A stretch of DNA of 35,856 nucleotides from a virus. Of this stretch, positions 1,421 to 18,144 are shown in pieces. The stretch lies in the IMG/VR virus record IMGVR_UViG_3300027518_000004; one strand, written 5' to 3'. Each line of letters opens with the position of its first letter. The first letter of the stretch is position 1. The notes beneath the pieces are model-generated. The model ran no database searches. It was not told the DNA's origin and was given only the letters and a program-made list of their open reading frames with translations. A program made the position numbers and the translations under genes.

Positions 1421-1543
1421 ATGAACACTCCTAACTGGAAACACAATTCAGGTAAAAAAAAGAATACAAAAGGAATGTGTAAGGGTAAACTTAAGTCAAT
1501 TAAACAACGACTTAAGTTTATAAAGAAAAAATTTAGCAGTTAA
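1421..1543 (+). CDS. Small basic protein (40 aa, MNTPNWKHNSGKKK...), below the ORF-track cutoff
   Basis: Manual translation; has its own promoter; resembles the small TPNW-x-H basic proteins of cyanomyophages (from memory). Confidence 0.75.
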   Translation: MNTPNWKHNSGKKKNTKGMCKGKLKSIKQRLKFIKKKFSS

Positions 1544-1549
1544 TTCTGC

Positions 1550-1664
1550 TTTTTATTTTTTATTCTTTATTATGTTTGCAGGGTAAGTGACGAACATTTT
1601 AGTCCACAGAGTTACATCACTCCTCAACTAATTTTAATCAGGATTTGCAACTGATAGTAGTCTA
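1550..1664 (-). repeat. Intergenic element copy 1 (diverged) with leftward -10 TGC-TAGACT
   Basis: Core gcagggtaagtgac at 1578; T-rich tract to the left; agtcta 1659-1664. Confidence 0.75.
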
Positions 1665-1687
1665 GCAGGTTATGGTGGGATCTGGGC

Positions 1688-1724
1688 ATTAGCGTTGCTT
1701 ATGAGACCGATAAGTTTCGCTGAT
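1688..1724. promoter_or_regulatory. Tandem LysR-type boxes ATTAG-N5-CTTAT and ATAAG-N5-CTGAT, 22-bp offset
   Basis: Same arrangement at 3090-3126, 4936-4972 and 10060-10096; single boxes at 6529-6543 and 11870-11884. Confidence 0.6.
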
Positions 1725-1790
1725 CGTTAAGGGCTTCCCAGATCCATCTAGGTGCTGTATTGTATGGGAGTCGTTACGGGATCTGCTCCC

Positions 1791-2546
1791 ATGATTCTCA
1801 AGTTTTCTTTCGGCAACAGTAAACTTGCCAATGATACTTTGATCTTTAATCTTCCGGCTGGTAAGACTTGTCCGGGTGCGGATAAGTGTCTTGCATTTGC
1901 TAAGGAAGTTGACGGCAAGCGTGTTCTGGTTAATGGGCCGCAAATGGAGTTTAGGTGTTTTGCTGCATGTTCTGAGGCAATGTATCCTCAGGCTTATGAT
2001 TCTCGGCATTATAATTGGGAGACTGTAAAGAATCTTATTAAGACTTTCGGTGTAGGAAAGGCCGGTAAGATGGTGGCTGATCAAATTCAGTCTATGCGTA
2101 AAAAGTCTACTAAACTTGTCAGAATTCATGAGAGCGGAGATTTTTATTCTTCTGAGTATTTTGCTCTGTGGATGCACGTTTGTCGATTGATTCCTGACCT
2201 TACTTTTTATGCTTACTCTAAGAATCTTCCTATGATTCTTGAGTATGGTCTGGACATGATGCCTAAGAATTTTTATCTTACGGCATCTAAAGGTGGTAAG
2301 TTTGACTACCTTATTGATGAAGGATTCTTCCCCCGTTATTCTGTGGTGGTGAAGAATGAAGATGAAGCAGAGGCAATGGGGCTGGAAGTGGATCATGATG
2401 ATTCACACTGCTACAAGCAAGATGGGCCGTTTGCTCTACTTGTCCACGGTAATCAGCCTGCTGGTAGTGAATGGCGCCAGGCGATTAAAGAGCGTAAGAA
2501 TAAGAATCAGTTCACTGGTTACAGTAAAAATAAAGTTGCTGTGTGA
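1791..2546 (+). CDS. GP88-like phage protein (Cys-containing, probably Fe-S/radical-SAM-like fold); start reassigned to ATG 1791
   Basis: FNLPAGKTCPGA..C...CFAA and VRIHESGDFYS..Y..W motifs typical of the gene product 88 family; the upstream in-frame MLYCMGV segment is repeat DNA. Confidence 0.75.
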   Translation: MILKFSFGNSKLANDTLIFNLPAGKTCPGADKCLAFAKEVDGKRVLVNGPQMEFRCFAACSEAMYPQAYDSRHYNWETVKNLIKTFGVGKAGKMVADQIQSMRKKSTKLVRIHESGDFYSSEYFALWMHVCRLIPDLTFYAYSKNLPMILEYGLDMMPKNFYLTASKGGKFDYLIDEGFFPRYSVVVKNEDEAEAMGLEVDHDDSHCYKQDGPFALLVHGNQPAGSEWRQAIKERKNKNQFTGYSKNKVAV

Positions 2547-2625
2547 CACTTAAATAACCGGCACATGGGGATCATAAATGGTCCCCATCTTACATTAAAC
2601 TAACCTCAGTTCAAACACAGCAACC

Positions 2626-2940
2626 ATGAATCGTTCACTAATTGTTGTAAAGCATCCCAACAAAAGAAAGTTTTATAGTATCAGAATTCATTGGGAGTAT
2701 GGTCAATCTGTAGAGAATTGGTTGAAAGAAAATTTTAGTGATTATAGGAGAATTATGTCGCGTCTTCTTCCTGAAGGTCATAGGTCAACAATTAAAGAAT
2801 CTTATAAAGAATTGTTGGATAATCTTACAGCAGAAGATGTTAATTATTGGGAACATAAAACACTAAAGGAAGCAGTTAATAACTGTGAACATCTTACACT
2901 TGCTTATTTTAACAATAAATGGAAGTTTAAACATAATTGA
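2626..2940 (+). CDS. Hypothetical early protein (104 aa)
   Basis: ORF track; preceded by palindromic motif 2541-2565, hairpin 2565-2588 and TAAACT -10. Confidence 0.8.
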   Translation: MNRSLIVVKHPNKRKFYSIRIHWEYGQSVENWLKENFSDYRRIMSRLLPEGHRSTIKESYKELLDNLTAEDVNYWEHKTLKEAVNNCEHLTLAYFNNKWKFKHN

Positions 2941-2948
2941 ATAATTAT

Positions 2949-2973
2949 AAAAGGGGATTTAATCCCTTTTTTT
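2949..2973 (+). terminator. Intrinsic terminator
   Basis: aaaaggggat-tta-atcccttttttt; related hairpins at 4083-4112 and 5426-5447. Confidence 0.75.
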
Positions 2974-3067
2974 ATTGTTTATACTTTATTATGTTTGCAG
3001 GGTAAGTGTCGATCTTTATTGTCATCGAGGCTACTTTGCCTCTCGTTTGGTTGTTGAATACAGTCTA
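2966..3067 (-). repeat. Intergenic element copy 2 with leftward -10 TGC-TAGACT
   Basis: Core gcagggtaagtgtc at 2997; agtcta 3062-3067. Confidence 0.8.
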
Positions 3068-3191
3068 GCATGGCTCTGGCAGTTTTACGATAAGTGTTGC
3101 TTATCTGTTACATAAAATTCGCTTATCGTTAAGGGCTTCCTAAATCCGTCTAGGTGCTGTATTGTATGGGAGTCGTCAGGGAACACCACCC

Positions 3192-3347
3192 ATGGCCCGA
3201 ACATTCTCAATCGCCTGTGATCTGGAGACCAGACAATACGTCTGGTCGTGTTTCAATAACCAACAACAAATGGTTCAAAATTGTGAACCGGTTGTTCTTT
3301 CGGCGGCTACGATTTCCGCACACTTCGCACAAAGGTATTCAAAGTGA
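3192..3347 (+). CDS. Hypothetical early protein (51 aa, MARTFSIACD...)
   Basis: ATG follows the conserved gggaacaccaccc leader; same frame as ORF 3162..3347. Confidence 0.7.
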   Translation: MARTFSIACDLETRQYVWSCFNNQQQMVQNCEPVVLSAATISAHFAQRYSK

Positions 3348-3349
3348 AC

Positions 3350-3475
3350 ATGATTCAAACTTTTGATTTCTCTGGCAACATTGTGACCTTTATTGGTCTG
3401 TTTGGGGTTATTTTTACAACCACCATTCTGGCTGTTGTTTATACAGAATACTGGAAGTCGCCCTACAGGCGGTGA
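3350..3475 (+). CDS. Small single-pass membrane protein (41 aa, MIQTFDFSGNIVTFIGLFGVIFTTTILAVVYTEYWKSPYRR)
   Basis: Manual translation; one hydrophobic helix and a basic C-terminus; starts 2 nt after the previous stop. Confidence 0.7.
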   Translation: MIQTFDFSGNIVTFIGLFGVIFTTTILAVVYTEYWKSPYRR

Positions 3476-3558
3476 CAGTTAAACAACTGGCACAGGGGGC
3501 CGTGATTCGGCCCCATTCACCCCCTACAATGATCTCGTTCACCACAGGCACTACAGCC

Positions 3559-3852
3559 ATGAACATGACCAAAAAAGGCTACATCTTCACTTCTGAATAC
3601 AGTGGTGAAGATAGATGCGTGATGGCATCATCACTGGCAGAGGCAACTGGTAAGTTGCCGGATAGTTTTCAGTGGGATGATTATTACATTGATGAACTAT
3701 ACCACATCGCCAAGATGAGCGATTGCGGTAACTGGCAAATCCTGGAATCGTTCTGGGATTATGATGCGGCGGATCGCAAGATCGACAGGTATTCAAATAA
3801 GTTTTCGGGTGCCTATGTTGAGATCATCCGTAACAACCAACCGGTTGATTAA
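3559..3852 (+). CDS. Hypothetical early protein (97 aa, MNMTKKGY...)
   Basis: ORF 3472..3852 with the start moved downstream of the promoter (motif 3472-3494, hairpin, TACAAT -10). Confidence 0.75.
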   Translation: MNMTKKGYIFTSEYSGEDRCVMASSLAEATGKLPDSFQWDDYYIDELYHIAKMSDCGNWQILESFWDYDAADRKIDRYSNKFSGAYVEIIRNNQPVD

Positions 3853-3923
3853 CTGGCACAAGGGCACTGGACTTTAATCCGGTGCCCGGTTATTCTACTA
3901 TTGTTCATCACTCAAACAACACG

Positions 3924-4079
3924 ATGACAACCTACGAATCGAATCACGAAAGACTTATGCTGTTCGCCCAGAATTGGATGAACCACTTTAATTTTGTCCT
4001 TTCTCTTACTCTCTGGAGTGATAGTGAAAAAAGCATGTATCAAGAAGATTTTAATTATAATAAAGTTTATGATGTGTGA
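3924..4079 (+). CDS. Hypothetical early protein (51 aa, MTTYESNHER...)
   Basis: ORF 3882..4079 with the start moved after the promoter (AACTGGCACA motif, hairpin 3862-3887, TACTAT -10). Confidence 0.65.
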   Translation: MTTYESNHERLMLFAQNWMNHFNFVLSLTLWSDSEKSMYQEDFNYNKVYDV

Positions 4080-4103
4080 CATAAAAGAGGGATTTAATCC
4101 CTC

Positions 4104-4232
4104 TTTTTTTTTATTTTTTATATTTTTTTATGTTTGCAGGATAGATGACCAGTTTTATGTCATCACGCCCCTGCGTTCGTTAGTTTGTGGTTCAGGCTCT
4201 CAAGGTGGTTCCTTGCGGTTGAAGCAATCCTA
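4104..4232 (-). repeat. Intergenic element copy 3 with leftward -10 TAGGAT
   Basis: Core gcaggatagatgaccagttttatgtcatcacgcccctgc at 4136; atccta 4227-4232. Confidence 0.9.
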
Positions 4233-4349
4233 CAACACCACAACCACCAGCAGCCGCCTTCAGTGGACAGTTTTTAAGTGGCACAAGCAACTCACCATCT
4301 ACCGGTTCCCGTGGCCTATACTGAGCGAGTCGTTAGGCAATCACTTCTC

Positions 4350-4766
4350 ATGTCTTACACTCAATTCGTCGCCACTGCTTCCTGTTCCGTAGTGGATGAT
4401 TTCAACCTGCAATCCTATCTGGATGGTCTTTTGGTTCGATGTGTGGAGGAAGAAAACTTTATCTTTGAGTTTTATGGTCTTGATTCTAATGATAACCTTG
4501 ATGTAGACTTTGCTGATTATGTTCGCATCAGTGGTGGCAAACTTCTGATTGAATGTGACTCTGAAGAATCTAATGGTAATAGTGAGGTTTGGGATTGGTT
4601 GATTGACCAGTTTCCACCTATTATGACTTCTCAGTTTATGACTATTAAATCTGCATCGATTGATAGTCGTTCTGGTGTAGACGTTTGTGTTGTTTATGTT
4701 GATAAGGAAGGTAACGTTATGGACAGTGAAAGTATCCTTGAGCAATACATTAAAATGTCTAGTTGA
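4350..4766 (+). CDS. Acidic hypothetical early protein (138 aa, MSYTQFV...)
   Basis: ORF 4278..4766; start reassigned after the TATACT -10 at 4317-4322. Confidence 0.8.
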   Translation: MSYTQFVATASCSVVDDFNLQSYLDGLLVRCVEEENFIFEFYGLDSNDNLDVDFADYVRISGGKLLIECDSEESNGNSEVWDWLIDQFPPIMTSQFMTIKSASIDSRSGVDVCVVYVDKEGNVMDSESILEQYIKMSS

Positions 4767-4778
4767 CTTTTAGTAATC

Positions 4779-4809
4779 GTGGCTCTGGGTTAATTATACC
4801 TAGGGCCAC
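4779..4809 (+). terminator. Conserved-loop hairpin family, copy 1 of 7 (also 6373-6399, 9240-9262, 9896-9920, 10489-10519, 11075-11101, 11655-11685)
   Basis: GC-rich stem (GT)GGCCYGGRGT...ACYCYRGGCC(AC) with loop TAATTAT/TTATTAT/TAGTTAT, just after stop codons and usually followed by T runs. Confidence 0.7.
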
Positions 4810-4913
4810 TTTTTTATTATACTCAATTATCTTTTAATGTTTTATTGCAGGCTAGGTGACCAGTTTTATGTCATCACGCCCCTGCGTTCTTTTCTTTTGT
4901 TGAATACAGTCTA
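4810..4913 (-). repeat. Intergenic element copy 4 with leftward -10 TGA-TAGACT
   Basis: Core gcaggctaggtgaccagttttatgtcatcacgcccctgc at 4847; agtcta 4908-4913. Confidence 0.9.
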
Positions 4914-5037
4914 TCATAGCCCATGGAGATTTGAGATTAGTGTTGCTTATCTGTTACATAAAATTCGCTTATCGTTAAGGGCTTCCCAAATCCAGCCTGA
5001 TGCCGTATTGTATGGAAGTCGTCAGGGAACACCACCC

Positions 5038-5418
5038 ATGAAGAACGCCAACGGTGATCCGATTCTTTGCAAGGAAACCGTGAGAGTCTACCGCAATCTG
5101 CGGGAGAACTGCTGGAGCATCCAGCGTAAGACTGACAAAGGCTGGAGAGTCTGGCTTCGATGGGATTATGTTGTTCTCGATAATGCCCAGTTTGTTGTTA
5201 ACAAAGCAGGGCAAAATCGGGTTCGCAGAGAGAATAAAAAGTATGTTCATGCTTTTGTGTATGGCACACTTATGGCAAATACGTGTGGCCCAAGTGAAAG
5301 AATGGTAAAGGTAAATTATAATCCTTACCATAATGATTTCTTTCAAACTAGACATGGAGACATACATGAGGCTGGTCGAGTTTGGTTAACGAATGAAAAT
5401 AAAGTTTTTTGTGAATAG
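5038..5418 (+). CDS. Conserved phage hypothetical protein (126 aa; VYRNL..WS, RVRRENKKYVHAFV, YNPY motifs)
   Basis: ORF 4837..5418 with the start moved to the ATG after the gggaacaccaccc leader; motif pattern seen in a widespread phage family. Confidence 0.8.
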   Translation: MKNANGDPILCKETVRVYRNLRENCWSIQRKTDKGWRVWLRWDYVVLDNAQFVVNKAGQNRVRRENKKYVHAFVYGTLMANTCGPSERMVKVNYNPYHNDFFQTRHGDIHEAGRVWLTNENKVFCE

Positions 5419-5440
5419 TTATAACGGGGGATTCTCCCCC

Positions 5441-5568
5441 TTTTTTTATTCTTTATACTTTTTTATGTTTGCAGGGTAGGTGACTAGTTTTATGTCATCA
5501 CGCCCCTGCGTTAGTTAGATTTTAGATCAGGCCTTCAAGGTTCCTCCTTGGCTGCTGATAGAATCCTA
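5441..5568 (-). repeat. Intergenic element copy 5 with leftward -10 TGC-TAGGAT
   Basis: Core gcagggtaggtgactagttttatgtcatcacgcccctgc at 5471; atccta 5563-5568. Confidence 0.9.
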
Positions 5569-5685
5569 GCATGGCCTGGCCCGATCCTACCAGCCAGATC
5601 CAGCCAGTTCCTGAACCGGCCACCATCCGGCCCTGTTGCCGGTTCCTGGGGCCTATACTGAGCAAGTCAACCAACCGACACCACA

Positions 5686-6357
5686 ATGGACCGTCAGGCA
5701 GTTCTCGACAAGATTCAGGCGATGATGAATCTCAAAGATTCATCGACCTTTGAAGGTGAGGCAGCTAATGCTGCTGCGATGATTGACAAGCTCTGCGCAA
5801 AGTATGGCGTGAGTTTGGATGATCTTACCCCCCAAATTCTTGATGAGGTTGTTGCCTCAGGTCGCGTGAGATCGTATAACAAACTCATTTGGGAGGCTGT
5901 GGCATACTTTTATGATGCACAGTTGTACTATAAAAACAGTGCAAATGAAGTGCGTGTTATTGGATCTGAGGCTCAGCAGATTCAGGTCAAACTCTATTCT
6001 GAGTTTATCTGTGATTGTATGCATAATGAGGCCAATAAAGCCTATGAAGGTGAGAAGATCCTGGCAGAACTGACTGATTCTGTTATGCCTTCCCGAAAGT
6101 TTCTTGAGGCCTTCAAGGTAACTTTTGCGGCTGAAGTTCGCCGTCGGTTGAGTGAGATGAAGCGGGAAACGAATAGGGTGCATGAACATAAGCAACTTGT
6201 TGAGGGTGAGGTATCCAAACGTCGATGGGGACGAGCTAAGTCTATCCGAACATTTGCCTCTGGTAGTGGTGCAATGGCCGGTGCTTGTGCTGGCAATAGT
6301 GTATCCCTACATCGGCAGGCTAGTGGTAGCGTCCAGCGTCAACTTTGCGGGGGGTAA
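5686..6357 (+). CDS. DUF2786-domain protein (223 aa)
   Basis: N-terminal LDKIQAMMNL...EGEAANAAAMIDKLCAKYGV pattern and C-terminal G..AG..VSLHRQ match the DUF2786 family. Confidence 0.8.
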   Translation: MDRQAVLDKIQAMMNLKDSSTFEGEAANAAAMIDKLCAKYGVSLDDLTPQILDEVVASGRVRSYNKLIWEAVAYFYDAQLYYKNSANEVRVIGSEAQQIQVKLYSEFICDCMHNEANKAYEGEKILAELTDSVMPSRKFLEAFKVTFAAEVRRRLSEMKRETNRVHEHKQLVEGEVSKRRWGRAKSIRTFASGSGAMAGACAGNSVSLHRQASGSVQRQLCGG

Positions 6358-6399
6358 GTTATAGTAACTTGTGGCCTGGAGTTTATTATACTCCAGGCC

Positions 6400-6505
6400 T
6401 TATCTTTTTTTTTATTCTTTATAACATTATTAACTTGCAGGGTAGATGACCAGTTTTATGTCATCACGCCCCTGCGTTCTTCTTTCTTTGTCTGGAGTCA
6501 TTCTA
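6400..6505 (-). repeat. Intergenic element copy 6 with leftward -10 TGC-TAGAAT
   Basis: Core gcagggtagatgaccagttttatgtcatcacgcccctgc at 6437; attcta 6500-6505. Confidence 0.9.
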
Positions 6506-6640
6506 GCATCCTCTGGGGGATTCCGGTGATTAGCAGTGCTTATGGGTCGGTGGGTTGACCTGGGGGTGGGGGTGCTGGTATTCTATGGGAGTCGTCGGGA
6601 GCACGTTGCCCTGGCGATAATCACCCTCGCTTAAATCATC

Positions 6641-6856
6641 ATGGCTCTTACTACTGACCAACTCAATCAACTGGTTGAAGCCTATGCTGAAAGGTGTGTT
6701 AATGACATGGATACCAAGTGCCTTGAACAGTTTGTTTATGATACTATTGTAGAAAATCTTTCTCACATGGGAGAGGAAGATGTTATGGACCAGCTTTATG
6801 GTGTTTATGATGATGAAGTCATCCAAGAAATGGTGGAGAGTGTGACAGCTGATTAA
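6641..6856 (+). CDS. Small acidic helical hypothetical protein (71 aa)
   Basis: ORF track; YAERCVNDMDTKCL pattern typical of cyanomyophage early ORFs. Confidence 0.8.
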   Translation: MALTTDQLNQLVEAYAERCVNDMDTKCLEQFVYDTIVENLSHMGEEDVMDQLYGVYDDEVIQEMVESVTAD

Positions 6857-6894
6857 GTGTCACCTGGGGAGTCGGCAACGGCTCCCCGCCGTCC

Positions 6895-6985
6895 TATGCT
6901 TACATCAGCAACCAACCTAGCGCGGGCGGCGCGGTTACATAAAACAAGTCACCTACCCTGCATGTTTATAAAAATATAAACAATC
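6895..6985 (+). repeat. Inverted copy of the intergenic element with rightward -10 TATGCT
   Basis: gcgggcggcgcggttacataaaacaagtcacctaccctgcatgtttataaaaatataaacaat matches the reverse complement of the other copies. Confidence 0.85.
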
Positions 6986-7084
6986 AATCATAAGTTACGT
7001 TTAGTTCTTGTCAGTATCTCCAGGCCGCTTGTCAGGCCGCCGCCAACCTGCTACACTTAGGGAGTCGTCAGGGAAACCCCTACC

Positions 7085-8572
7085 ATGATCGCTCTCTCCC
7101 CCCAGCAGACCGCCGCCGTTGCCGCCGTTGCCTCCGGCCACGATTCGATCGTGCTGGAAGCCGTTGCAGGGGCTGGTAAGACTTCGACGTTGATTGAGAT
7201 GTTGCAGCAGACTAAAGGTTCTGTTGCGTTCTGTGCATTTAACAAATCAATCTCCAGTGAGATTGACTACAAGATTCAACCTAAGAATCTTGGCGATCGG
7301 GTTAAGGTGGGAACAGTTCATTCGTTCGGGTTTGGTGCTATCCGTCGCGCCATCAGTCGAGTCAAGGTTGATGGTAACAAACTGCGCAATCTTGCGCGGG
7401 AAGAGTTTAATGGAGAGTATGCGAATCTTCAGGGGTTCGTTACATCTTCCGTCGCAATGGCAAAGGAGGTCGGTATCGCGGCTTGCGCCGAGAATGATAA
7501 AGATTCATGGATTAGAATGTTCGATCATTATAATCTGTGGGAGAATCTCCCCGACAATGTTTCTACTGAGACGGCGATTGATGCCTCTCAGTATCTTCTT
7601 AACTGTAGCAATCAGCTGCGGAATGTTGTAGACTTCGCAGACATGATTTATCTGCCGATTCTTAATCGGCTGAAGATTTGGCAATACGATAATGTCTTCC
7701 TCGATGAAGCGCAAGATACTAATGCGACTCGTCGCGCACTGGTTAAGATGATGCTCAAGCCTAACGGTAGGCTAGTTGCAGTGGGCGATCCCCACCAGGC
7801 CATTTATGGCTTCACTGGTGCAGATCATCAGGCTCTCGATAACATTCGGGAAGATTTTAAGGCAGTTACGATGCCTCTCAGCATCACATTCCGCTGCCCC
7901 AAGAATGTTGTCGAAGTGGCAAATCAGTGGGTCGATCACATCGAGGCTGCTGATTCTGCCCCTGAGGGTATCGTAGACTCTTGCGAGTTGCAAGATGTTT
8001 ATAAGTTGGCATCGCAAGATGATGCGATTATCTGTCGCAATACCAAACCACTTGTCGAGCTGGCGTATAGCCTGATTCGCCGTTCTATCCCCTGTCGTGT
8101 AGAGGGTCGGGCGATTGGTGAGGGTTTGGTTAAACTTGCCCAACGGTGGAAAATTAAGACTGTGGCCCAACTTTTAGATAAGTTGGAAGAATGGAAGGAT
8201 AAAGAAATCAATAAGCATAAAGAAAAGGGTAACGATTCTCGTTGTCAGGTTATCGAAGATCAGGCAGAAACTCTGATGGTGTTTATCTCAGAGTGTAAGT
8301 TTGAGGATCCTATCTCTACTCTGGTGGAGAAGATTCGTGCCCTGTTCGGTGATACTGAGGGCCAGCAGAAAGTGCTGACCCTTAGCACAATCCACAAGTC
8401 TAAGGGTAGAGAATGGCAGCGAGTGTTCGCGCTCGGCATGAACAACTATTCTCCCAGTAAGTGGGCACGAAAGGATTGGGAGTTGACCCAGGAAGATAAC
8501 CTCTGCTATGTGCAAGTTACCAGGGCAAAGCATCACCTTACGATGGTGAATGTTCCCGAGAAGCTCAGTTGA
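7085..8572 (+). CDS. UvrD/Rep-family (SF1A) DNA helicase (495 aa)
   Basis: Walker A AVAGAGKTS, Walker B DEAQD, VGDPHQAIYGFTGA, TFRCP, STIHKSKGREW, YVQVTRAK. Confidence 0.95.
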   Translation: MIALSPQQTAAVAAVASGHDSIVLEAVAGAGKTSTLIEMLQQTKGSVAFCAFNKSISSEIDYKIQPKNLGDRVKVGTVHSFGFGAIRRAISRVKVDGNKLRNLAREEFNGEYANLQGFVTSSVAMAKEVGIAACAENDKDSWIRMFDHYNLWENLPDNVSTETAIDASQYLLNCSNQLRNVVDFADMIYLPILNRLKIWQYDNVFLDEAQDTNATRRALVKMMLKPNGRLVAVGDPHQAIYGFTGADHQALDNIREDFKAVTMPLSITFRCPKNVVEVANQWVDHIEAADSAPEGIVDSCELQDVYKLASQDDAIICRNTKPLVELAYSLIRRSIPCRVEGRAIGEGLVKLAQRWKIKTVAQLLDKLEEWKDKEINKHKEKGNDSRCQVIEDQAETLMVFISECKFEDPISTLVEKIRALFGDTEGQQKVLTLSTIHKSKGREWQRVFALGMNNYSPSKWARKDWELTQEDNLCYVQVTRAKHHLTMVNVPEKLS

Positions 8573-8595
8573 CCGGGCAAACAAATCAGTATCTT

Positions 8596-8622
8596 ACCCC
8601 TGGCAAGTGCCGGGGGTTTTTT
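8596..8622 (+). terminator. Intrinsic terminator after the helicase
   Basis: acccctggca-ag-tgccgggggt followed by T run. Confidence 0.8.
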
Positions 8623-8715
8623 ATAGTTTCTGTTTTTTTCGTTTCGGGATTGTGGACGTGCTATGGGTCGTTGGCTGCAATGTCGAAACGAAAAAAATGG
8701 TTTTTATAACTAACT

Positions 8716-8845
8716 TGTTTTTTTAGTTTTTTATAGTATTATTAACTTGCAGGGTAGGTGACCAGTTTTATGTCATCACGCCCCCGCGTTCGTTAGTTTG
8801 TGGTTCAGGCTCTCAAGGTGGTTCCTTGCGGTTGAAGCAATCCTA
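8716..8845 (-). repeat. Intergenic element copy 7 with leftward -10 TGC-TAGGAT
   Basis: Core gcagggtaggtgaccagttttatgtcatcacgcccccgc at 8749; atccta 8840-8845. Confidence 0.9.
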
Positions 8846-8962
8846 GCATGGCCTGGCCCGATCCGACCAGCCAGATCCAGCCAGTTCCTGAACCGGCCAC
8901 CATCCGGTCTGGTTGCCGGTTCCTGTGGCCTATACTCTAAGGGTCCCAAAGGGAGACCTCCC

Positions 8963-9229
8963 GTGGTCACTATCCGTCACTTCTGCGCTGACAATGATCG
9001 CAACGGTAACCCGCAGCGATTGTATGCCTTGATTGATCCTGAAGGCGAGATGCTCGCAGTATGGGATGAAGGCTATTCGGGCTCGGACGCTGTGCCTGGT
9101 ATCTGGAGAAAAGATGCTTATTTTGCAGAGCGTGAGAAAATCAGTGTCCGTAAGTATAAGAAATTGCTCAGGGATTATCCTTCGCCCGCTTATGCTTATG
9201 AGGTGAAAGGTTACTCTCATTTACGTTAG
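8963..9229 (+). CDS. Hypothetical early protein (88 aa, GTG start; DRNGNPQRLY..DEGYSG)
   Basis: ORF 8798..9229 with the start moved to the GTG after the gggagacctccc leader. Confidence 0.75.
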   Translation: MVTIRHFCADNDRNGNPQRLYALIDPEGEMLAVWDEGYSGSDAVPGIWRKDAYFAEREKISVRKYKKLLRDYPSPAYAYEVKGYSHLR

Positions 9230-9262
9230 TAACTCGTGGCCCGGAGTTTATTATACTCCGGG

Positions 9263-9360
9263 TTTTCTTTATTCTTTATACTATTATTTCATGGCAGGTT
9301 AGGTGTCCAGTTTTCTGTCGTTGCGGCCCCCCGCTCCCCCTGTTTGTTGAATACAGTCTA
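9263..9360 (-). repeat. Intergenic element copy 8 with leftward -10 TGC-TAGACT
   Basis: Core gcaggttaggtgtccagttttctgtcgttgcggccccccgc at 9294; agtcta 9355-9360. Confidence 0.9.
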
Positions 9361-9383
9361 GCACAGCCGTTAGCCGGTGACCT

Positions 9384-9397
9384 GTATCCCACGCTAC
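9384..9397. promoter_or_regulatory. NtcA box GTA-N8-TAC, 23 nt from the leftward TAN3T -10
   Basis: GTAtcccacgcTAC; repeated at 10644-10657 and 11227-11240. Confidence 0.7.
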
Positions 9398-9493
9398 AAA
9401 ATCCAGAATGTCCGGGTTCCGTGACAAACAGCCGTCAACCGCGCAGCTGGCCGGTCGATGGTGTAGACTTTAAGGGTCGTCGGGATTCCTCCC

Positions 9494-9886
9494 ATGCTCA
9501 CCGGTTCCGCTCTCCTGGCCCACCACACTGCCATCAAGGCGCAGGGTGGCAGCAACGCCACTACCGCCAGGCTGGCGGGTTACGTTACCATCAAAGATGA
9601 TGGAAGCGAGCGCATCAGGTTTACCGATTACTTCTCGGAGCTGATGGTAGCTCAGGGCAGAATGAGTAAGGTTCGTGTAACGATCACCGATACATTCGGT
9701 GGTGAACCCAACTACAGTTGGGTCAACTTCCACCAGGTTTATGTACCCGTAGATAGGGACCCGATTCGTTACATCAAGAAGCAAATCGGATGGGCTGGGA
9801 CCAAATGTGACAAACAGGATTGTGGGTCCTATGTTACACTTCGGCCCCGTGGCCAATGTGTAGTTATCATCATCGACTGGATGTGA
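9494..9886 (+). CDS. cyAbrB-like N-terminal domain fused to a phage hypothetical domain (TDTFGGEPNYSWV)
   Basis: MLTGSALL...ARLAGYV...GSERIRFTDYFSELMVAQG resembles the N-terminus of cyanobacterial AbrB-like regulators; in-frame ATG at 9662 begins the second domain. Confidence 0.7.
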   Translation: MLTGSALLAHHTAIKAQGGSNATTARLAGYVTIKDDGSERIRFTDYFSELMVAQGRMSKVRVTITDTFGGEPNYSWVNFHQVYVPVDRDPIRYIKKQIGWAGTKCDKQDCGSYVTLRPRGQCVVIIIDWM

Positions 9887-9920
9887 TAGCCAACTGCCCG
9901 GAGTTTATTATACTCCGGGC

Positions 9921-10049
9921 TTTATCTTTTTTTTTATTCTTTATAGTATTATTAACTTGCAGGATTAGTGTCTTGGTTTATGTCATCACGCCGCCCGCGT
10001 TCGTTTTCTTTGTTGTTTATAGTATAGCAGCCGTGCCCCATAGCGTCAA
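9921..10049 (-). repeat. Intergenic element copy 9 with a full leftward sigma70 promoter TTGACG-N17-TATACT
   Basis: Core gcaggattagtgtcttggtttatgtcatcacgccgcccgc at 9959; agtata 10021-10026; cgtcaa 10044-10049. Confidence 0.9.
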
Positions 10050-10159
10050 GGGGTTTTCCATAAGTGTTGTTTATCAGTCCCATAAGCACCGCTGATCGTT
10101 AAGGGCTTCCCAGATCCGTCTGGGTGCTGTATTGTATGGGAGTCAACAGGATTCGATCC

Positions 10160-10480
10160 ATGAACGACTACCGCCCGGAAGTCCGCTCCCTACTCAACGC
10201 GCTGAGCCGCGCAGGGTTTGCGCCCATTTCTGTTGATAACGGCGAGGAGATGATTCGCCGTTCGGATGTATCCAAGACTGAGTTCTTGGAGGAAATTGTT
10301 GCAACAGACGAGGCAACATTGCGCCTTCAACATAATAACAAAATGGTGGCAGTTTGGCTAGTTTTGGGTAGCGATCCTGGTGAGATTGCGGCAGATTATA
10401 CTGATTATGAACCGCTGGAGGTTGTAATCGAGGAGCATTATTCTCGATGGGAGAGTAGAAAACAGCCAGTCATTAAGTAA
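10160..10480 (+). CDS. Acidic hypothetical early protein (106 aa; VDNGEE, VWLVLGSDPGEIAADYT)
   Basis: ORF 10124..10480 with the start moved to ATG 10160. Confidence 0.8.
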   Translation: MNDYRPEVRSLLNALSRAGFAPISVDNGEEMIRRSDVSKTEFLEEIVATDEATLRLQHNNKMVAVWLVLGSDPGEIAADYTDYEPLEVVIEEHYSRWESRKQPVIK

Positions 10481-10522
10481 CACAAACCGTGGCCCGGAGT
10501 TAGTTATACTCTGGGCCACAAC

Positions 10523-10620
10523 TTTTTTTATTTTTTTATAGTATTATTTCATGGCAGGTTAGGTGTCCAGTTTTCTGTCGTTGCGGCCCCCCGCTCCCCC
10601 TGTTTGTTGAATACAGTCTA
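10523..10620 (-). repeat. Intergenic element copy 10 (near-identical to copy 8)
   Basis: Core at 10554; agtcta 10615-10620; similarity to 9283-9477 extends to ~10737. Confidence 0.9.
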
Positions 10621-10755
10621 GCACAGCCGGTGGCTGGTAACCGGTATCCCACGCTACAGAATCCAGAATGTCCGGGTTTCGTGACAAACAGCCGTCAACC
10701 GCGCAGCTGGCCGGTCGATGGTGTAGACTTTAAGGGTTCCAAAGGGAGACCTCCC

Positions 10756-11061
10756 ATGGCCAGCCTCACCATCAAGACCAACAACCGATCAAGGCACCTT
10801 TTCTATGCCTGCGAGGTTAACTACTCCGAGCGGGAGCGATTCCGCAAGGAGTTTGACTGGATGGAACAGGAGGAGTTTGACCGGGCTATGTTCTTTAAGT
10901 ACCGGGGAGAATACTATGCTCTCTCCGAGTTTGTTCGAGTGGAGGGTGACCTACTTGCCAAGGGTTGGCAGGGTCAACTAGGCCAAACTGCCTGGAGTTC
11001 TTTACTCCTTAAGATCGTAGATTCCTGTCAGTCCGTTATAGTTGGGCGGGCCTATTGGTGA
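10756..11061 (+). CDS. Conserved phage hypothetical protein (101 aa; FFKYRGEYYALSEF, GWQG)
   Basis: ORF 10630..11061 with the start moved to the ATG after gggagacctccc. Confidence 0.8.
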   Translation: MASLTIKTNNRSRHLFYACEVNYSERERFRKEFDWMEQEEFDRAMFFKYRGEYYALSEFVRVEGDLLAKGWQGQLGQTAWSSLLLKIVDSCQSVIVGRAYW

Positions 11062-11101
11062 TGTAACAAACCGTGGCCCGGAGTTTATTATACTCCGGGC
11101 C

Positions 11102-11203
11102 TTATCTTTTTTTATTCTTTATACTATTATTTCATGGCAGGTTAGGTGTCCCGGTTTGTGTCTTAGCGGCCCCCCGCTCCCCCTGTTTGTTGAATACAGT
11201 CTA
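11102..11203 (-). repeat. Intergenic element copy 11
   Basis: Core gcaggttaggtgtcccggtttgtgtcttagcggccccccgc at 11137; agtcta 11198-11203. Confidence 0.9.
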
Positions 11204-11338
11204 GCACAGCCGGTGGCTGGTAACCGGTATCCCACGCTACAGAATCCAGAATGTCCGGGTTTCGTGACAAACAGCCATCAACCGCGCAGTGGGTCGGTCG
11301 ATGGTGTAGGATACGGGGGTCCCAAACGGAACCGACCC

Positions 11339-11647
11339 ATGGCCAACGCTCAGCTCGATGCTATCATCCGCGCCTATCTTCAGGCCCATGAGGCTAAAGA
11401 TGAGGCTACAAAGAAGTATAATCAACTCCGGGATGAGTTGATGGAAGTTCTTGACGCTGAGGGGATCCAACGGTACACTGGAGCTTTCGCTAAGCTCACA
11501 GTATGTCAGAGGAAGGTTTATGGCTTTCCCGCTGAAGTCATCCTAGCTAAGGAGTTGGCTAAGGCTCAAGAACAGGCGGCGATTAAGACTGGAGCCGCGA
11601 GCGTGGTAGGGGTAACTCGCTACCCTAAAGTCACAGTGACTGAGTGA
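11339..11647 (+). CDS. Coiled-coil hypothetical early protein (102 aa, MANAQLDAII...)
   Basis: ORF 11042..11647 with the start moved to ATG 11339 after the TAGGAT -10. Confidence 0.8.
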   Translation: MANAQLDAIIRAYLQAHEAKDEATKKYNQLRDELMEVLDAEGIQRYTGAFAKLTVCQRKVYGFPAEVILAKELAKAQEQAAIKTGAASVVGVTRYPKVTVTE

Positions 11648-11716
11648 TGCAAACGTGGCCCAGGGTTAGTTATACTCTGGGCCACAACTAAATCTTTATT
11701 CTTTATAAGATAAAGA

Positions 11717-11814
11717 TTTTTTTATTCGTTATAGTATTATTTCATGGCAGGTTAGGTGTCTTGGTTTGTATCATTGCGGCGCCCCCGCTCCCCTTGATTG
11801 CTGAAGCAATCCTA
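11717..11814 (-). repeat. Intergenic element copy 12 with leftward -10 TAGGAT
   Basis: Core gcaggttaggtgtcttggtttgtatcattgcggcgcccccgc at 11747; atccta 11809-11814. Confidence 0.9.
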
Positions 11815-12305: not shown

Positions 12306-12327
12306 ATTACAAAGTGTAACAGGCACT

Positions 12328-12355
12328 TGACAGTGTGCCGCCGCCGTGTTATGAT
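12328..12355 (+). promoter_or_regulatory. Near-consensus sigma70 promoter TTGACA..TG-T-TATGAT
   Basis: cacttgacagtgtgccgccgccgtgttatgat. Confidence 0.75.
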
Positions 12356-12535
12356 CGAAGCCTGGGCCTAACCATAAAAACCCCCCATAAAAAATAAACC
12401 CTTTTAAAATAAAAACCCAAATTCACACCAATTATCGGCCAATTTTATAAGGGACTAATTTTTATACGAAAACCCCAATTCGTTTCAAAAATATCAAAAA
12501 AATCCGCGCCCAAAAAAATACCCCAAAAGGGTCAT

Positions 12536-12543
12536 CATAAATA
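12536..12543 (+). promoter_or_regulatory. T4-type late promoter (CATAAATA)
   Basis: Matches (T)ATAAATA, 47 nt before ATG 12591; similar boxes at 14763, 15442, 18807 (+) and 16761 (-). Confidence 0.65.
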
Positions 12544-12590
12544 TCACTGGTTATCACCAATATTATTCTACATAAGGAGAACATTGAATC

Positions 12591-16089: not shown

Positions 16090-16737
16090 TCATTGTGGTT
16101 TAGGTACTTTTAATGTCATTCTTCCAGTGATATTAGAAACTTTTGATAATCCAGGGTGGATTTTAGAATAAAGTCTGGCTCTAGACCTCACTCCGGCTTG
16201 GTCTGGGCCACCTCTTTGTGTTTGGCCTGGTCTGGCTACAATGGTTGCCCCTGGCTTTACCCCAGCTGCCTTGAGGACTTCTGGAGCATTTATTGCAGCA
16301 GCCTTTAAATTTTTAGTGCGCTGTTTGATATTTTCTGTGTCGCCATGATCTCTTTCTAAATTTGGAGTAAAATCTATGGTTGCCACTTGTCCCCGTGGGT
16401 TTCTTCTATTTCTGGTTATTTGTTTTAAAAGTTGTTTCGCCTTGAATGCTCTAGTAGCACTAGAATGAACTATTTTTTTATCTCCAACTAATTCTACTTT
16501 AGGTACACTTGTTGCTGCATAATGAGCCGGATTCTTATAAACTCTTACTTCAGTTGATACATCATCTGGATCTGAGGTTGAATGTGTGTATTCTTGTGTT
16601 CCACCTCTTATGCTGGCCCTGGTTCCTAATCTTCTTTGTAAAATCTTAGAAAGATTTCTCCCTCTTTCGGCTCTTTGTTCTTTCTTGTTTCTAGGGCCAT
16701 GTCTAGCCTCAATAATGAACTGTTTGTATGTTTTCAT
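16090..16737 (-). CDS. Probable capsid-internal protein with MKTYKQFIIE targeting peptide
   Basis: N-terminus resembles the T4 IP capsid-targeting sequence MKTYQEFIAE; late promoter CTAAATA at 16761-16767. Confidence 0.8.
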   Translation of the reverse strand: MKTYKQFIIEARHGPRNKKEQRAERGRNLSKILQRRLGTRASIRGGTQEYTHSTSDPDDVSTEVRVYKNPAHYAATSVPKVELVGDKKIVHSSATRAFKAKQLLKQITRNRRNPRGQVATIDFTPNLERDHGDTENIKQRTKNLKAAAINAPEVLKAAGVKPGATIVARPGQTQRGGPDQAGVRSRARLYSKIHPGLSKVSNITGRMTLKVPKPQ

Positions 16738-16802
16738 ATATTAATCGACTAGTTTTTTAGTATTTAGAAAATACTATGAATTTATAAATTGCTTATAAGT
16801 TT

Positions 16803-17342
16803 TTATAGGTTATTTATCGGTAAAAATCTATTTCCTATTTTTACACTATATTGCTTTGATTTTGTTGGGCCTCTTTTCCCAAAATCCGCTCTTTCGGCGG
16901 CTCTTGACCTAGTATTTTTATCAGGGTTTATTGGAGACGGATTTGATTGTGGTACGCTAGAAACAATATGGCCAGAAGGAATTCTAGGTTGAATTTCATT
17001 TTTATAAGTTCTCAATGCGGCCCTGGCCATTCCGAATCTTTGGGCCGGGGTTAATTCTTCTCTACTTTTAGAGTGTGACCAAGATATTTCATGGGTAGGT
17101 TTGTTTGAATGGATCGTGTTCTGTAAATCTGGATCGGTATATTTTGAGTACTTTGGATCACCATGCCCAATTTTAAAAGTGACCCCGGAAGTCTTGTCCG
17201 TTATTGAGGTCTGCATCCCACTTCTTTTTCTTTTTATTGAAAGGTTCGGGTTTTTACTATAATAGTCAAATCCCTGAGACGAATCATATCTTTCCCCCCT
17301 TCTTCTTGTACTTTCTATTATAAACTGTTTATAAGTTTTCAT
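16803..17342 (-). CDS. Probable capsid-internal protein with MKTYKQFIIE targeting peptide
   Basis: Same N-terminal peptide; ATGA overlap with the upstream gene. Confidence 0.8.
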   Translation of the reverse strand: MKTYKQFIIESTRRRGERYDSSQGFDYYSKNPNLSIKRKRSGMQTSITDKTSGVTFKIGHGDPKYSKYTDPDLQNTIHSNKPTHEISWSHSKSREELTPAQRFGMARAALRTYKNEIQPRIPSGHIVSSVPQSNPSPINPDKNTRSRAAERADFGKRGPTKSKQYSVKIGNRFLPINNL

Positions 17343-17797
17343 TTTCTTCTTGGTCTAATTTTATTCCTCGGTTTAAACCGACTATTTGGATTTTCTTTGA
17401 AATATTTCTTCTGAAAACCTTTACCAACTTTTGGGGCATCAATTACACCCTCTTTTTCTTTTGATATATGCTTTTTTGCATAATCAGGATCCATTACTGT
17501 TGAATAATGTTCTCTTCCCCAATCATCAATTCCTCTTTGTCCAGTTGTTTTTACTACCTTTGCTGGAGGAGCATCTTTGATATCTTTTTTTGGAACTCTA
17601 AATGATATAGTCGTTGGGTCTTCTCCATGTCTGCTTCCAAAAGATTTTGCGATGTCTCTTGATGTCGAGGCATGAACTTCTGAAGTATTAAATCCTTTTT
17701 TCTCTATTTTATCGGCTGCTGGGGTTCCATGATACATTCTTACATATTTCAATGTTTGAGGAGCCGCTTCTAGCATAAACTGCTTATAAGTTTTCAT
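17339..17797 (-). CDS. Probable capsid-internal protein, ADP-ribosyltransferase-like
   Basis: MKTYKQFMLE peptide; MYHGT..I.KKGF..VHAST...A..F pattern of H-type ART folds. Confidence 0.7.
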   Translation of the reverse strand: MKTYKQFMLEAAPQTLKYVRMYHGTPAADKIEKKGFNTSEVHASTSRDIAKSFGSRHGEDPTTISFRVPKKDIKDAPPAKVVKTTGQRGIDDWGREHYSTVMDPDYAKKHISKEKEGVIDAPKVGKGFQKKYFKENPNSRFKPRNKIRPRRK

Positions 17798-18144
17798 CGT
17801 GGAGTTCTTATATATGGGCCATCTAATTCATCAACTGGTTTATATCCTAATCGTCTGTAAAATCTTCGCAGATCCCTTTCCTTTCCGGGTTCTGGTGATT
17901 GAGTTAGTCTGACTGATTTTCCATGTCTATCAGCAAATTTATGTAAGGTATTCATTGATGTAGTTCCAGTTCCTTCACCCTTATTCTTAGCGTATAAGTT
18001 GTGTACTACCACCCCGCTGGGTGTTGTTGATACTTTAAAAATTAAATTCCCTTTATGCTTTCTCTCTAAATTTTTGGCTATTGTTTCGGCCGCATCAGAT
18101 TTTGGGGGTCTAGCTTCAAGAATAAATTGCTTATAAGTTTTCAT
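17794..18144 (-). CDS. Probable capsid-internal protein, GNAT acetyltransferase-like
   Basis: MKTYKQFILE peptide; KGEGTGT (motif A) and LRRFYRRLGY (motif B). Confidence 0.75.
   Translation of the reverse strand: MKTYKQFILEARPPKSDAAETIAKNLERKHKGNLIFKVSTTPSGVVVHNLYAKNKGEGTGTTSMNTLHKFADRHGKSVRLTQSPEPGKERDLRRFYRRLGYKPVDELDGPYIRTPR

Follow-up and report, generated by a model that had tools for sequence, protein, structure and literature searches.

The window analysed here is the whole 35,856-nucleotide stretch of the IMG/VR virus record IMGVR_UViG_3300027518_000004, which, judged by its sequence, represents a portion of the genome of a T4-like cyanophage infecting lake cyanobacteria. Small open reading frames (ORFs) without assigned function, a GP88 gene and a UvrD-like helicase gene lie at its left and baseplate-type genes at its right, and among cultured phages, B3 and B23 of freshwater Synechococcus are closest to it (67% over the helicase). 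From its host-type promoters and small ORFs, the left block presumably comprises early genes. Between these genes a non-coding unit recurs thirteen times; it is a candidate for an undescribed small-RNA family, carried in cassettes that resemble the promoter-early stem-loop (PeSL) elements of T4-type phages, and a function for it can be proposed.

The repeated unit and its copies

Each unit consists, in order, of a sigma-70-type -10 box, a leader, a short hairpin, a stretch of 23–25 nt ending in CCUGC, and an AT-rich tail. The preliminary description of this DNA had placed the plus-strand core GCAGG at twelve positions; the core is indeed present at 12/12 of them, together with an inverted copy ending at 6961. 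The -10 boxes are likewise as claimed, being TG-extended in 10/13 copies and reading TATGCT in the inverted one. A pattern for the unit gave 10 matches in the window versus 0 in each of 100 shuffles, and covariance model R1, which was trained on the window copies, recovered 13/13 of them, all in 1553–11802, with the rest of the window free of matches. The copies, and the hairpins that end the upstream genes, are located as follows.

1578..1664, minus strand: copy 1, ancestral type; -10 box 1664-1659, predicted +1 1652, hairpin 1623-1608, motif end 1578
2997..3067, minus strand: copy 2, ancestral type; -10 box 3067-3062, predicted +1 3055, hairpin 3042-3027
4136..4232, minus strand: copy 3, long leader with extra 5' hairpin; -10 box 4232-4227, predicted +1 4220, hairpin 4176-4165
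4847..4913, minus strand: copy 4; -10 box 4913-4908, predicted +1 4901, hairpin 4887-4876
5471..5568, minus strand: copy 5, long leader; -10 box 5568-5563, predicted +1 5556, hairpin 5511-5500
6437..6505, minus strand: copy 6; -10 box 6505-6500, predicted +1 6493, hairpin 6477-6466
6895..6961, plus strand: copy 7, inverted; -10 box 6895-6900, predicted +1 6907, hairpin 6920-6932
8749..8845, minus strand: copy 8, long leader; -10 box 8845-8840, predicted +1 8833, hairpin 8789-8778
9294..9360, minus strand: copy 9; -10 box 9360-9355, predicted +1 9348, hairpin 9334-9323
9959..10049, minus strand: copy 10; TTGACG-17-TATACT promoter 10049-10021, predicted +1 10014, hairpin 10000-9988
10554..10620, minus strand: copy 11; -10 box 10620-10615, predicted +1 10608, hairpin 10594-10583
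11137..11203, minus strand: copy 12; -10 box 11203-11198, predicted +1 11191, hairpin 11177-11166
11747..11814, minus strand: copy 13; -10 box 11814-11809, predicted +1 11802, hairpin 11788-11776
1535..11101, plus strand: one terminator-like hairpin in each cassette, belonging to the upstream gene, at 1535, 2949, 4083, 4779, 5426, 6373, 8596, 9238, 9896, 10489 and 11075, with G-U pairs on the plus strand

The seventh base after the -10 box is A in 13/13 window copies. The hairpin follows the -10 box after 19–22 nt in nine copies, after 50–51 nt in the three that have an extra hairpin and after 35 nt in copy 1, and the predicted RNA measures 55–86 nt up to CCUGC. The length of 90–130 nt proposed earlier would hold only if transcription went on as far as the rear of the upstream terminator; the conserved part is the shorter one. 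Leaders are A-rich, of low complexity and common to several phages, and are reduced to about 1 nt in two copies of relatives (L071:2271 and L080:4762). Copies 1 and 2 had been thought to keep only the 3' core; both turned out to have TG-TAGACT, an A at the seventh base and a hairpin of 5 bp that closes a 6-nt loop. As marine phages have this form too, the two copies are regarded as ancestral in type, not truncated. The back of the upstream gene's terminator is faced by 12/13 copies. Copy 7 has no terminator-like site behind it and aims at the helicase promoter; because one copy is thus inverted and marine copies also lack a terminator behind them, the context of the unit is not fixed.

The long leaders of the copies at 4136, 5471 and 8749 contain an additional hairpin of 5 bp, the 3' arm of which is similar to boxA of the host rRNA spacer. 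The host boxA-like word lies between tRNA and 23S in 4/5 host matches, and in the long leaders the word may instead be a relic -35 box. The terminators at 4779, 6373, 9238, 9896, 10489 and 11075 have a TTATAC loop or arm in common with B3 and other relatives, which yields TATAAT or TATACT on either strand.

Conserved structure and distribution

In the freshwater set (53 copies) the hairpin has 4 bp, with 91.5% of 212 cells paired and 44 both-side changes, a level reached in 0/500 shuffles, and RNAalifold returned the same four pairs only. The ancestral-type set contains 30 copies, namely 22 of the 29 loci of the second scan described below and 8 others, gathered with a search pattern that did not include the hairpin. 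Here 149/150 cells are paired, with 63 both-side changes and 33–51% pairing in slid controls, the pairing figure being inflated because the rows were picked by eye, and the counts overstating independent events because the copies are related. The 16 G-U cells of this set are on the leftward strand. The ancestral form, to which window copies 1 and 2 belong, has a stem of 5–6 bp and a 6-nt purine-rich loop ending in GUA.

Two structural suggestions of the preliminary description did not survive alignment. Pairing of the ends (GCAGGG/CCCTGC) shows 0 compensatory changes and was equalled in 276/500 shuffles, the short hairpin being the conserved structure, and the G-cluster near the RNA 5' end is the loop of this hairpin, which reads AAAA or AGAA in many relatives. 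An H-type pseudoknot or riboswitch, with the loop pairing to the 3' segment in the one register named, was also rejected (59% of cells paired, 331/500 shuffles as high, no both-side change, slid controls no better). Across 66 copies (effective number 30), two A residues, a G, a further A and CCUGC show little or no variation, are unpaired and keep a fixed spacing. Furthermore, in 27 other non-freshwater or distant homologs the seventh base after the -10 box is a purine in 27/27, and a TTG-type -35 box is found in 16/27. The combination of promoter geometry and covarying hairpin is, at the level of sequence, the signature of a transcribed and folded RNA; the divergent promoter and leftward non-coding RNA of an undescribed family put forward earlier are borne out in these two respects, transcription itself being predicted.

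The unit is conserved beyond the window, in freshwater as well as marine cyanophages. Model R1 found 7 copies in B3, 8 in the complete contig G002, 8 in G003 and 7 in G004, in each case in one block of 5–7 kb, while contig L004, which is 94–97% identical to the window over shared blocks, has 12 copies. Two copies each are present in G011 and G013. The marine phages P-SSM2 and S-SSM7 have one copy each (at about 66,465–66,560 of AY939844, minus strand, and at about 50,905–50,990 of NC_015287, respectively), preceded by a near-consensus promoter and adjoined by a TGTGCCA-type palindrome and a divergent promoter. Palindromes of the TGTGCCA/TGGCACA type, common to the window, P-SSM2 and S-SSM7, occur at early-type promoters (window 4264-4285 and 6841-6863; L056 14470-14500; L102 1600-1630). 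Scanning IMG/VR with a pattern yielded 35 loci, distributed over 15 contigs; four single-match loci were excluded (L040, which has no hairpin, and L025, L027 and L042, which failed the filter). A second scan gave 50 loci, 39 of them distinct; promoter and hairpin were recognised by eye in 29, and the other 10 resemble chance matches in coding DNA. No homologs were found in S-CRM01, S-PM2, Syn9, S-SM2 or Sf-FS3.

Against prokaryote genomes, the freshwater pattern gave 0 matches and the ancestral pattern 10, of which 9 were scored and only the one in L330 scored high. This 60-bit match (L330:1479-1557) lies on a 5-kb contig of a Lishizhenia metagenome-assembled genome, which is probably misbinned phage DNA. 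No convincing host homolog was obtained from five genomes with 150 candidates scored in each. As had been anticipated, the unit is without a match in Rfam 15, where only tRNAs passed the gathering threshold and the other matches were weak and unrelated. The accessible text of the report on B3 and B23 (PMC7171214) does not describe the array repeats, and no description of the unit was met in the accessible literature on cyanophage RNAs and repeats, although supplementary alignments of PMC10690425 may include it unnamed.

Several known systems are comparable in part. The cyanobacterial small RNAs Yfr2 (1–9 copies) and NsiR1 (a tandem array) are, in the accessible text of PMC6596454, also short multi-copy RNAs with a conserved core; unlike them, the present unit is phage-encoded and interleaved with genes, and has neither an Rfam match nor a homolog in the five host genomes. 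The intergenic repeats of halovirus HF2 likewise have promoters and counter-transcripts, but these promoters are archaeal, the repeats measure 29–58 bp, and no conserved RNA structure is stated for them in the text available (PMC8707807). The non-coding RNAs CfrI, wcaG, manA, glnA and abiF are also from T4-like cyanophages, as given in accessible portions of PMC5931967 and PMC9964418, but differ in place and structure, and the unit does not match their Rfam families.

Cassettes and neighbouring genes

The copies are embedded in cassettes of 200–300 bp, and the genes between them differ among the window, L004, B3, G002 and G003. Genes and tRNAs identified in the left block are listed below.

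361-544: two tRNA genes
1794..2546, plus strand: GP88-family gene (PF17338), leading the cassette genes here as in B3 and L004
5038..5418, plus strand: phage L5 gp82-like gene (PF25735), missing in the L004 stretch compared
5686..6357, plus strand: DUF2786 gene, missing in the L004 stretch compared
6641..6856, plus strand: DUF7326 gene, between copy 6 and inverted copy 7, absent in L004
7085..8572, plus strand: UvrD-like helicase gene

When the window was aligned with L004, 9/9 ends of synteny blocks fell inside cassettes, which make up 34% of the stretch, a count that is biased since alignments tend to run into repeats. In T4-type phages (RB49/phi1, PST/T4 and nt-1/KVP40), PeSLs are described in the available text as bounding gene swaps by their repeats (PMC2839356, PMC4122927). 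The cassettes are like them in having a repeated intergenic stem-loop and a sigma-70-like early promoter between small variable genes, and in showing, on the biased count just given, insertions, deletions and swaps bounded by repeats in close relatives. They differ in that a PeSL is about one promoter and one stem-loop (with Shine-Dalgarno sequence and start codon) facing the gene, whereas each present cassette additionally comprises a divergent promoter, a covarying hairpin and an invariant motif, and the element persists as a single copy in marine phages. Neither antisense RNA nor cyanophages are mentioned in the available text of PMC2839356. The earlier comparison with PeSLs is thus apt for the surrounding cassette and leaves the covarying hairpin unexplained. 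It is likely that the copy number rose to 7–13 in the freshwater lineage by PeSL-type recombination between terminator-promoter cassettes; single marine elements have no twin, and recombination therefore cannot explain them.

A number of further features were noted in and around the cassettes. Boxes of the form ATAAG-N5-CT(T/G)AT lie between divergent promoters at 1710, 3090, 10082 and 11870, and a 37-bp inverted repeat at 8616-8714, between the helicase terminator and copy 8, is present in L004 too. Positions 1-360 are without genes, T-rich with tandem repeats and then A-rich, directly before the two tRNA genes, of which tRNA-Ile (361-436) has an unusual TAT anticodon. B3 has a comparable gene-free stretch ahead of tRNA-Leu, and contig L004 stops 45 nt past window base 1. 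The leftward promoters all point at this gene-free region, a candidate origin or assembly break. To the right of the array, 12327-12590 holds a TTGACA-17-TATGAT promoter and, after it, some 230 nt of non-coding DNA rich in A and C, with a counterpart in B3, and an MKTYKQF N-terminus is common to four consecutive minus-strand ORFs at 16090-18144.

Possible functions of the unit

On balance we lean towards the units being an undescribed small-RNA family that acts in trans on a host component. An own promoter, the absence of a conserved ORF and a conserved structure, which characterise trans-acting small RNAs, were all found. In this view, each leftward promoter would be used by host RNA polymerase early in infection to make an RNA of about 55–90 nt; the short covarying hairpin is likely to protect this RNA and to display its unpaired 3' motif. 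Through the motif the RNA is predicted to attach in trans to a conserved component of the host, the one named candidate, a doubtful one, being the 5' strand of 23S rRNA helix 38 and the other possibility some host RNA-binding protein. The 7–13 copies of the freshwater lineage would raise the RNA dose. Transcription, its early timing, trans action and the host partner are all steps that we infer. Comparison of four carriers with five non-carriers gave 0 phage ORFs that every carrier has and every non-carrier lacks; since no phage ORF tracks the element and no host homolog occurs in the five genomes, the partner would be a host or core-phage one. A tRNA mimic, a CsrA sponge, a Xer/att site, a CRISPR-repeat mimic and DnaA-type unwinding were also considered and rejected, as the motifs that define them are not kept constant across the aligned copies.

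A duplex scan against host rRNA gave one site, placed by Rfam alignment on the 5' strand of a helix that we take to be helix 38. The site is identical in 7/7 picocyanobacterial genomes, and four larger-genome cyanobacteria lack the part facing CCUGC; a phylum-wide rRNA pattern, mis-sized for picocyanobacteria, matched 6/121 genomes, 4 of them at the rRNA site. The native partner strand of the helix resembles the phage motif. When the 11-nt core was used, this site was the best in 3/3 host rRNA operons (22.4 vs 17.9); permuted motifs reached it in 0, 1 and 2 of 150 cases, and about 680,000 genomic sites sampled for comparison all scored lower. Prochlorococcus SS51 has a single exact match to the 10-mer, which lies in the 23S gene. 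A long strict complement in five host genomes gave 1 match with one mismatch versus 3 in the control, an unbulged 11-mer target was not found in rRNA, and a single-bulge constraint on the purines was not seen (0.154 vs 0.152). It is conceivable, though doubtful, that the 3' motif captures the 5' strand of helix 38 during transcription and so hinders 50S assembly. The RNA motif would then copy the native partner strand, and nucleotides and polymerase might be diverted to the phage, a consequence to which we attach the same low confidence. The suggestion that 7–13 promoter-driven freshwater copies offset weaker pairing is just as tentative.

Several observations weigh against a trans-acting RNA in general and against helix 38 as its partner, in addition to the selection and relatedness of the aligned copies given above. 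No constant 3' end or terminator was found on the leftward strand in the window copies, the ancestral set or the other homologs. The long GCAGGG/CCCTGC stem, which buries the motif, is the minimum-energy fold in 6/13 window copies, and an opposing-strand hexamer, treated below, is left unexplained. The helix-38 match is post hoc, the window of the motif having been chosen after the site was seen, and only the 10–11-nt core holds, 22-nt duplex energies being equal to those of shuffled sequences. For each subfamily alone, 2/6 windows hold (2–5/60 permutations) and 4/6 fail (29–60/60). The 10-mer also occurs outside rRNA in Synechococcus G009, at about 9 among the first 100 listed places; pairing with helix 38 leaves the invariant G and AA unexplained, and several window copies, as well as copies with two purines, pair poorly with the site.

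The alternative with a small but real chance of being correct is a cis-acting leader, in which hairpin and motif would allow leftward read-through of the upstream terminator, and a long antisense RNA would time, protect or silence early mRNAs. That 12/13 copies face the back of a gene terminator, that only three such hairpins score as terminators leftward, and that three long leaders carry a host-boxA-like word all fit this idea, and antisense RNA is known in S-PM2, as stated in the accessible part of PMC5931967. The inverted copy 7 and the single marine copies, however, do not face a terminator, and the boxA-like word, maybe a relic -35, is confined to 3/13 copies, the core being without boxA.

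Transcription-primed origins like oriF and oriG of T4, where an R-loop in the AT-rich tail would prime DNA synthesis, had been the first hypothesis of the preliminary description and now appear improbable. A strong promoter followed by a 30-nt tail of 83–97% AT in the window copies is a likeness to the T4 origins, and all copies lie in one block adjoining the AT-rich gene-free region. However, tail AT falls to 53–90% in the ancestral set, the G-rich loop is not kept, and no skew change occurs at the block in the two genomes G002 and P-SSM2 (a weak test in recombination-replicating phages). T4 origins have no common sequence motif and their R-loops are sequence-independent in the available text of PMC3016281, whereas the present unit has invariant residues and occurs in 7–13 sequence-specific copies. 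T4 origins furthermore need a MotA middle promoter; the promoters here have host-type -35 and -10 boxes, and cyanophages are without motA according to the accessible text of PMC5780444, which cites Doron 2016 for this.

Equally hard to favour is a cassette acting at the DNA level only, with PeSL-type promoter-terminator repeats and protein-binding sites and the leftward RNA as a by-product. The 9/9 block ends in cassettes and the differing gene sets of five genomes agree with it, as do a spacing without indels and the -35-like GACA within the motif. Yet the hairpin pairs go through all Watson-Crick types with G-U tolerated on one strand only, and the single copy kept in P-SSM2 and S-SSM7 has no twin to recombine with.

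The opposing -10-like hexamer lies exactly 11 nt before the core in freshwater copies, including 11/13 window copies; this TAnnnT is found in 66% of weighted copies versus a shuffle mean of 10% and maximum of 29%, the stretch being partly within the search pattern and its sixth base not. The hexamer could serve as a promoter of PeSL type located behind the terminator, or antisense RNA could originate from it. That it starts a functional rightward RNA before GCAGG, alone or besides the leftward one, which would end at the hairpin and a U-rich tail or pair with the leftward RNA, is a quite improbable reading, given that TAnnnT is missing from the four marine-type copies tested, that neither a -35 box nor TG accompanies it, and that G-U pairs become A-C on the rightward strand. 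Lastly, guide RNAs with variable 5' ends are very improbable: the constant scaffold of the second earlier hypothesis is present and leader length varies, but the leaders are A-rich and common to several phages, no partner protein tracks the element, and the two nearly leaderless copies speak against variable guides.

In oceans and lakes, T4-like cyanophages rank among the most abundant viruses; to our knowledge few non-coding RNAs are known from them. The unit described here is a well-defined candidate with strong covariation, present as a single copy in the cultured model phages P-SSM2 and S-SSM7 and in seven copies in the cultured B3, and for this reason its expression, ends and partners are directly testable, partly in existing infection transcriptomes. 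With these cassettes, which would include an RNA gene, shuffling of the PeSL type would extend to cyanophages as well. Pairing with helix 38, if true, would represent host shut-off by an RNA aimed at a folding intermediate of the ribosome.

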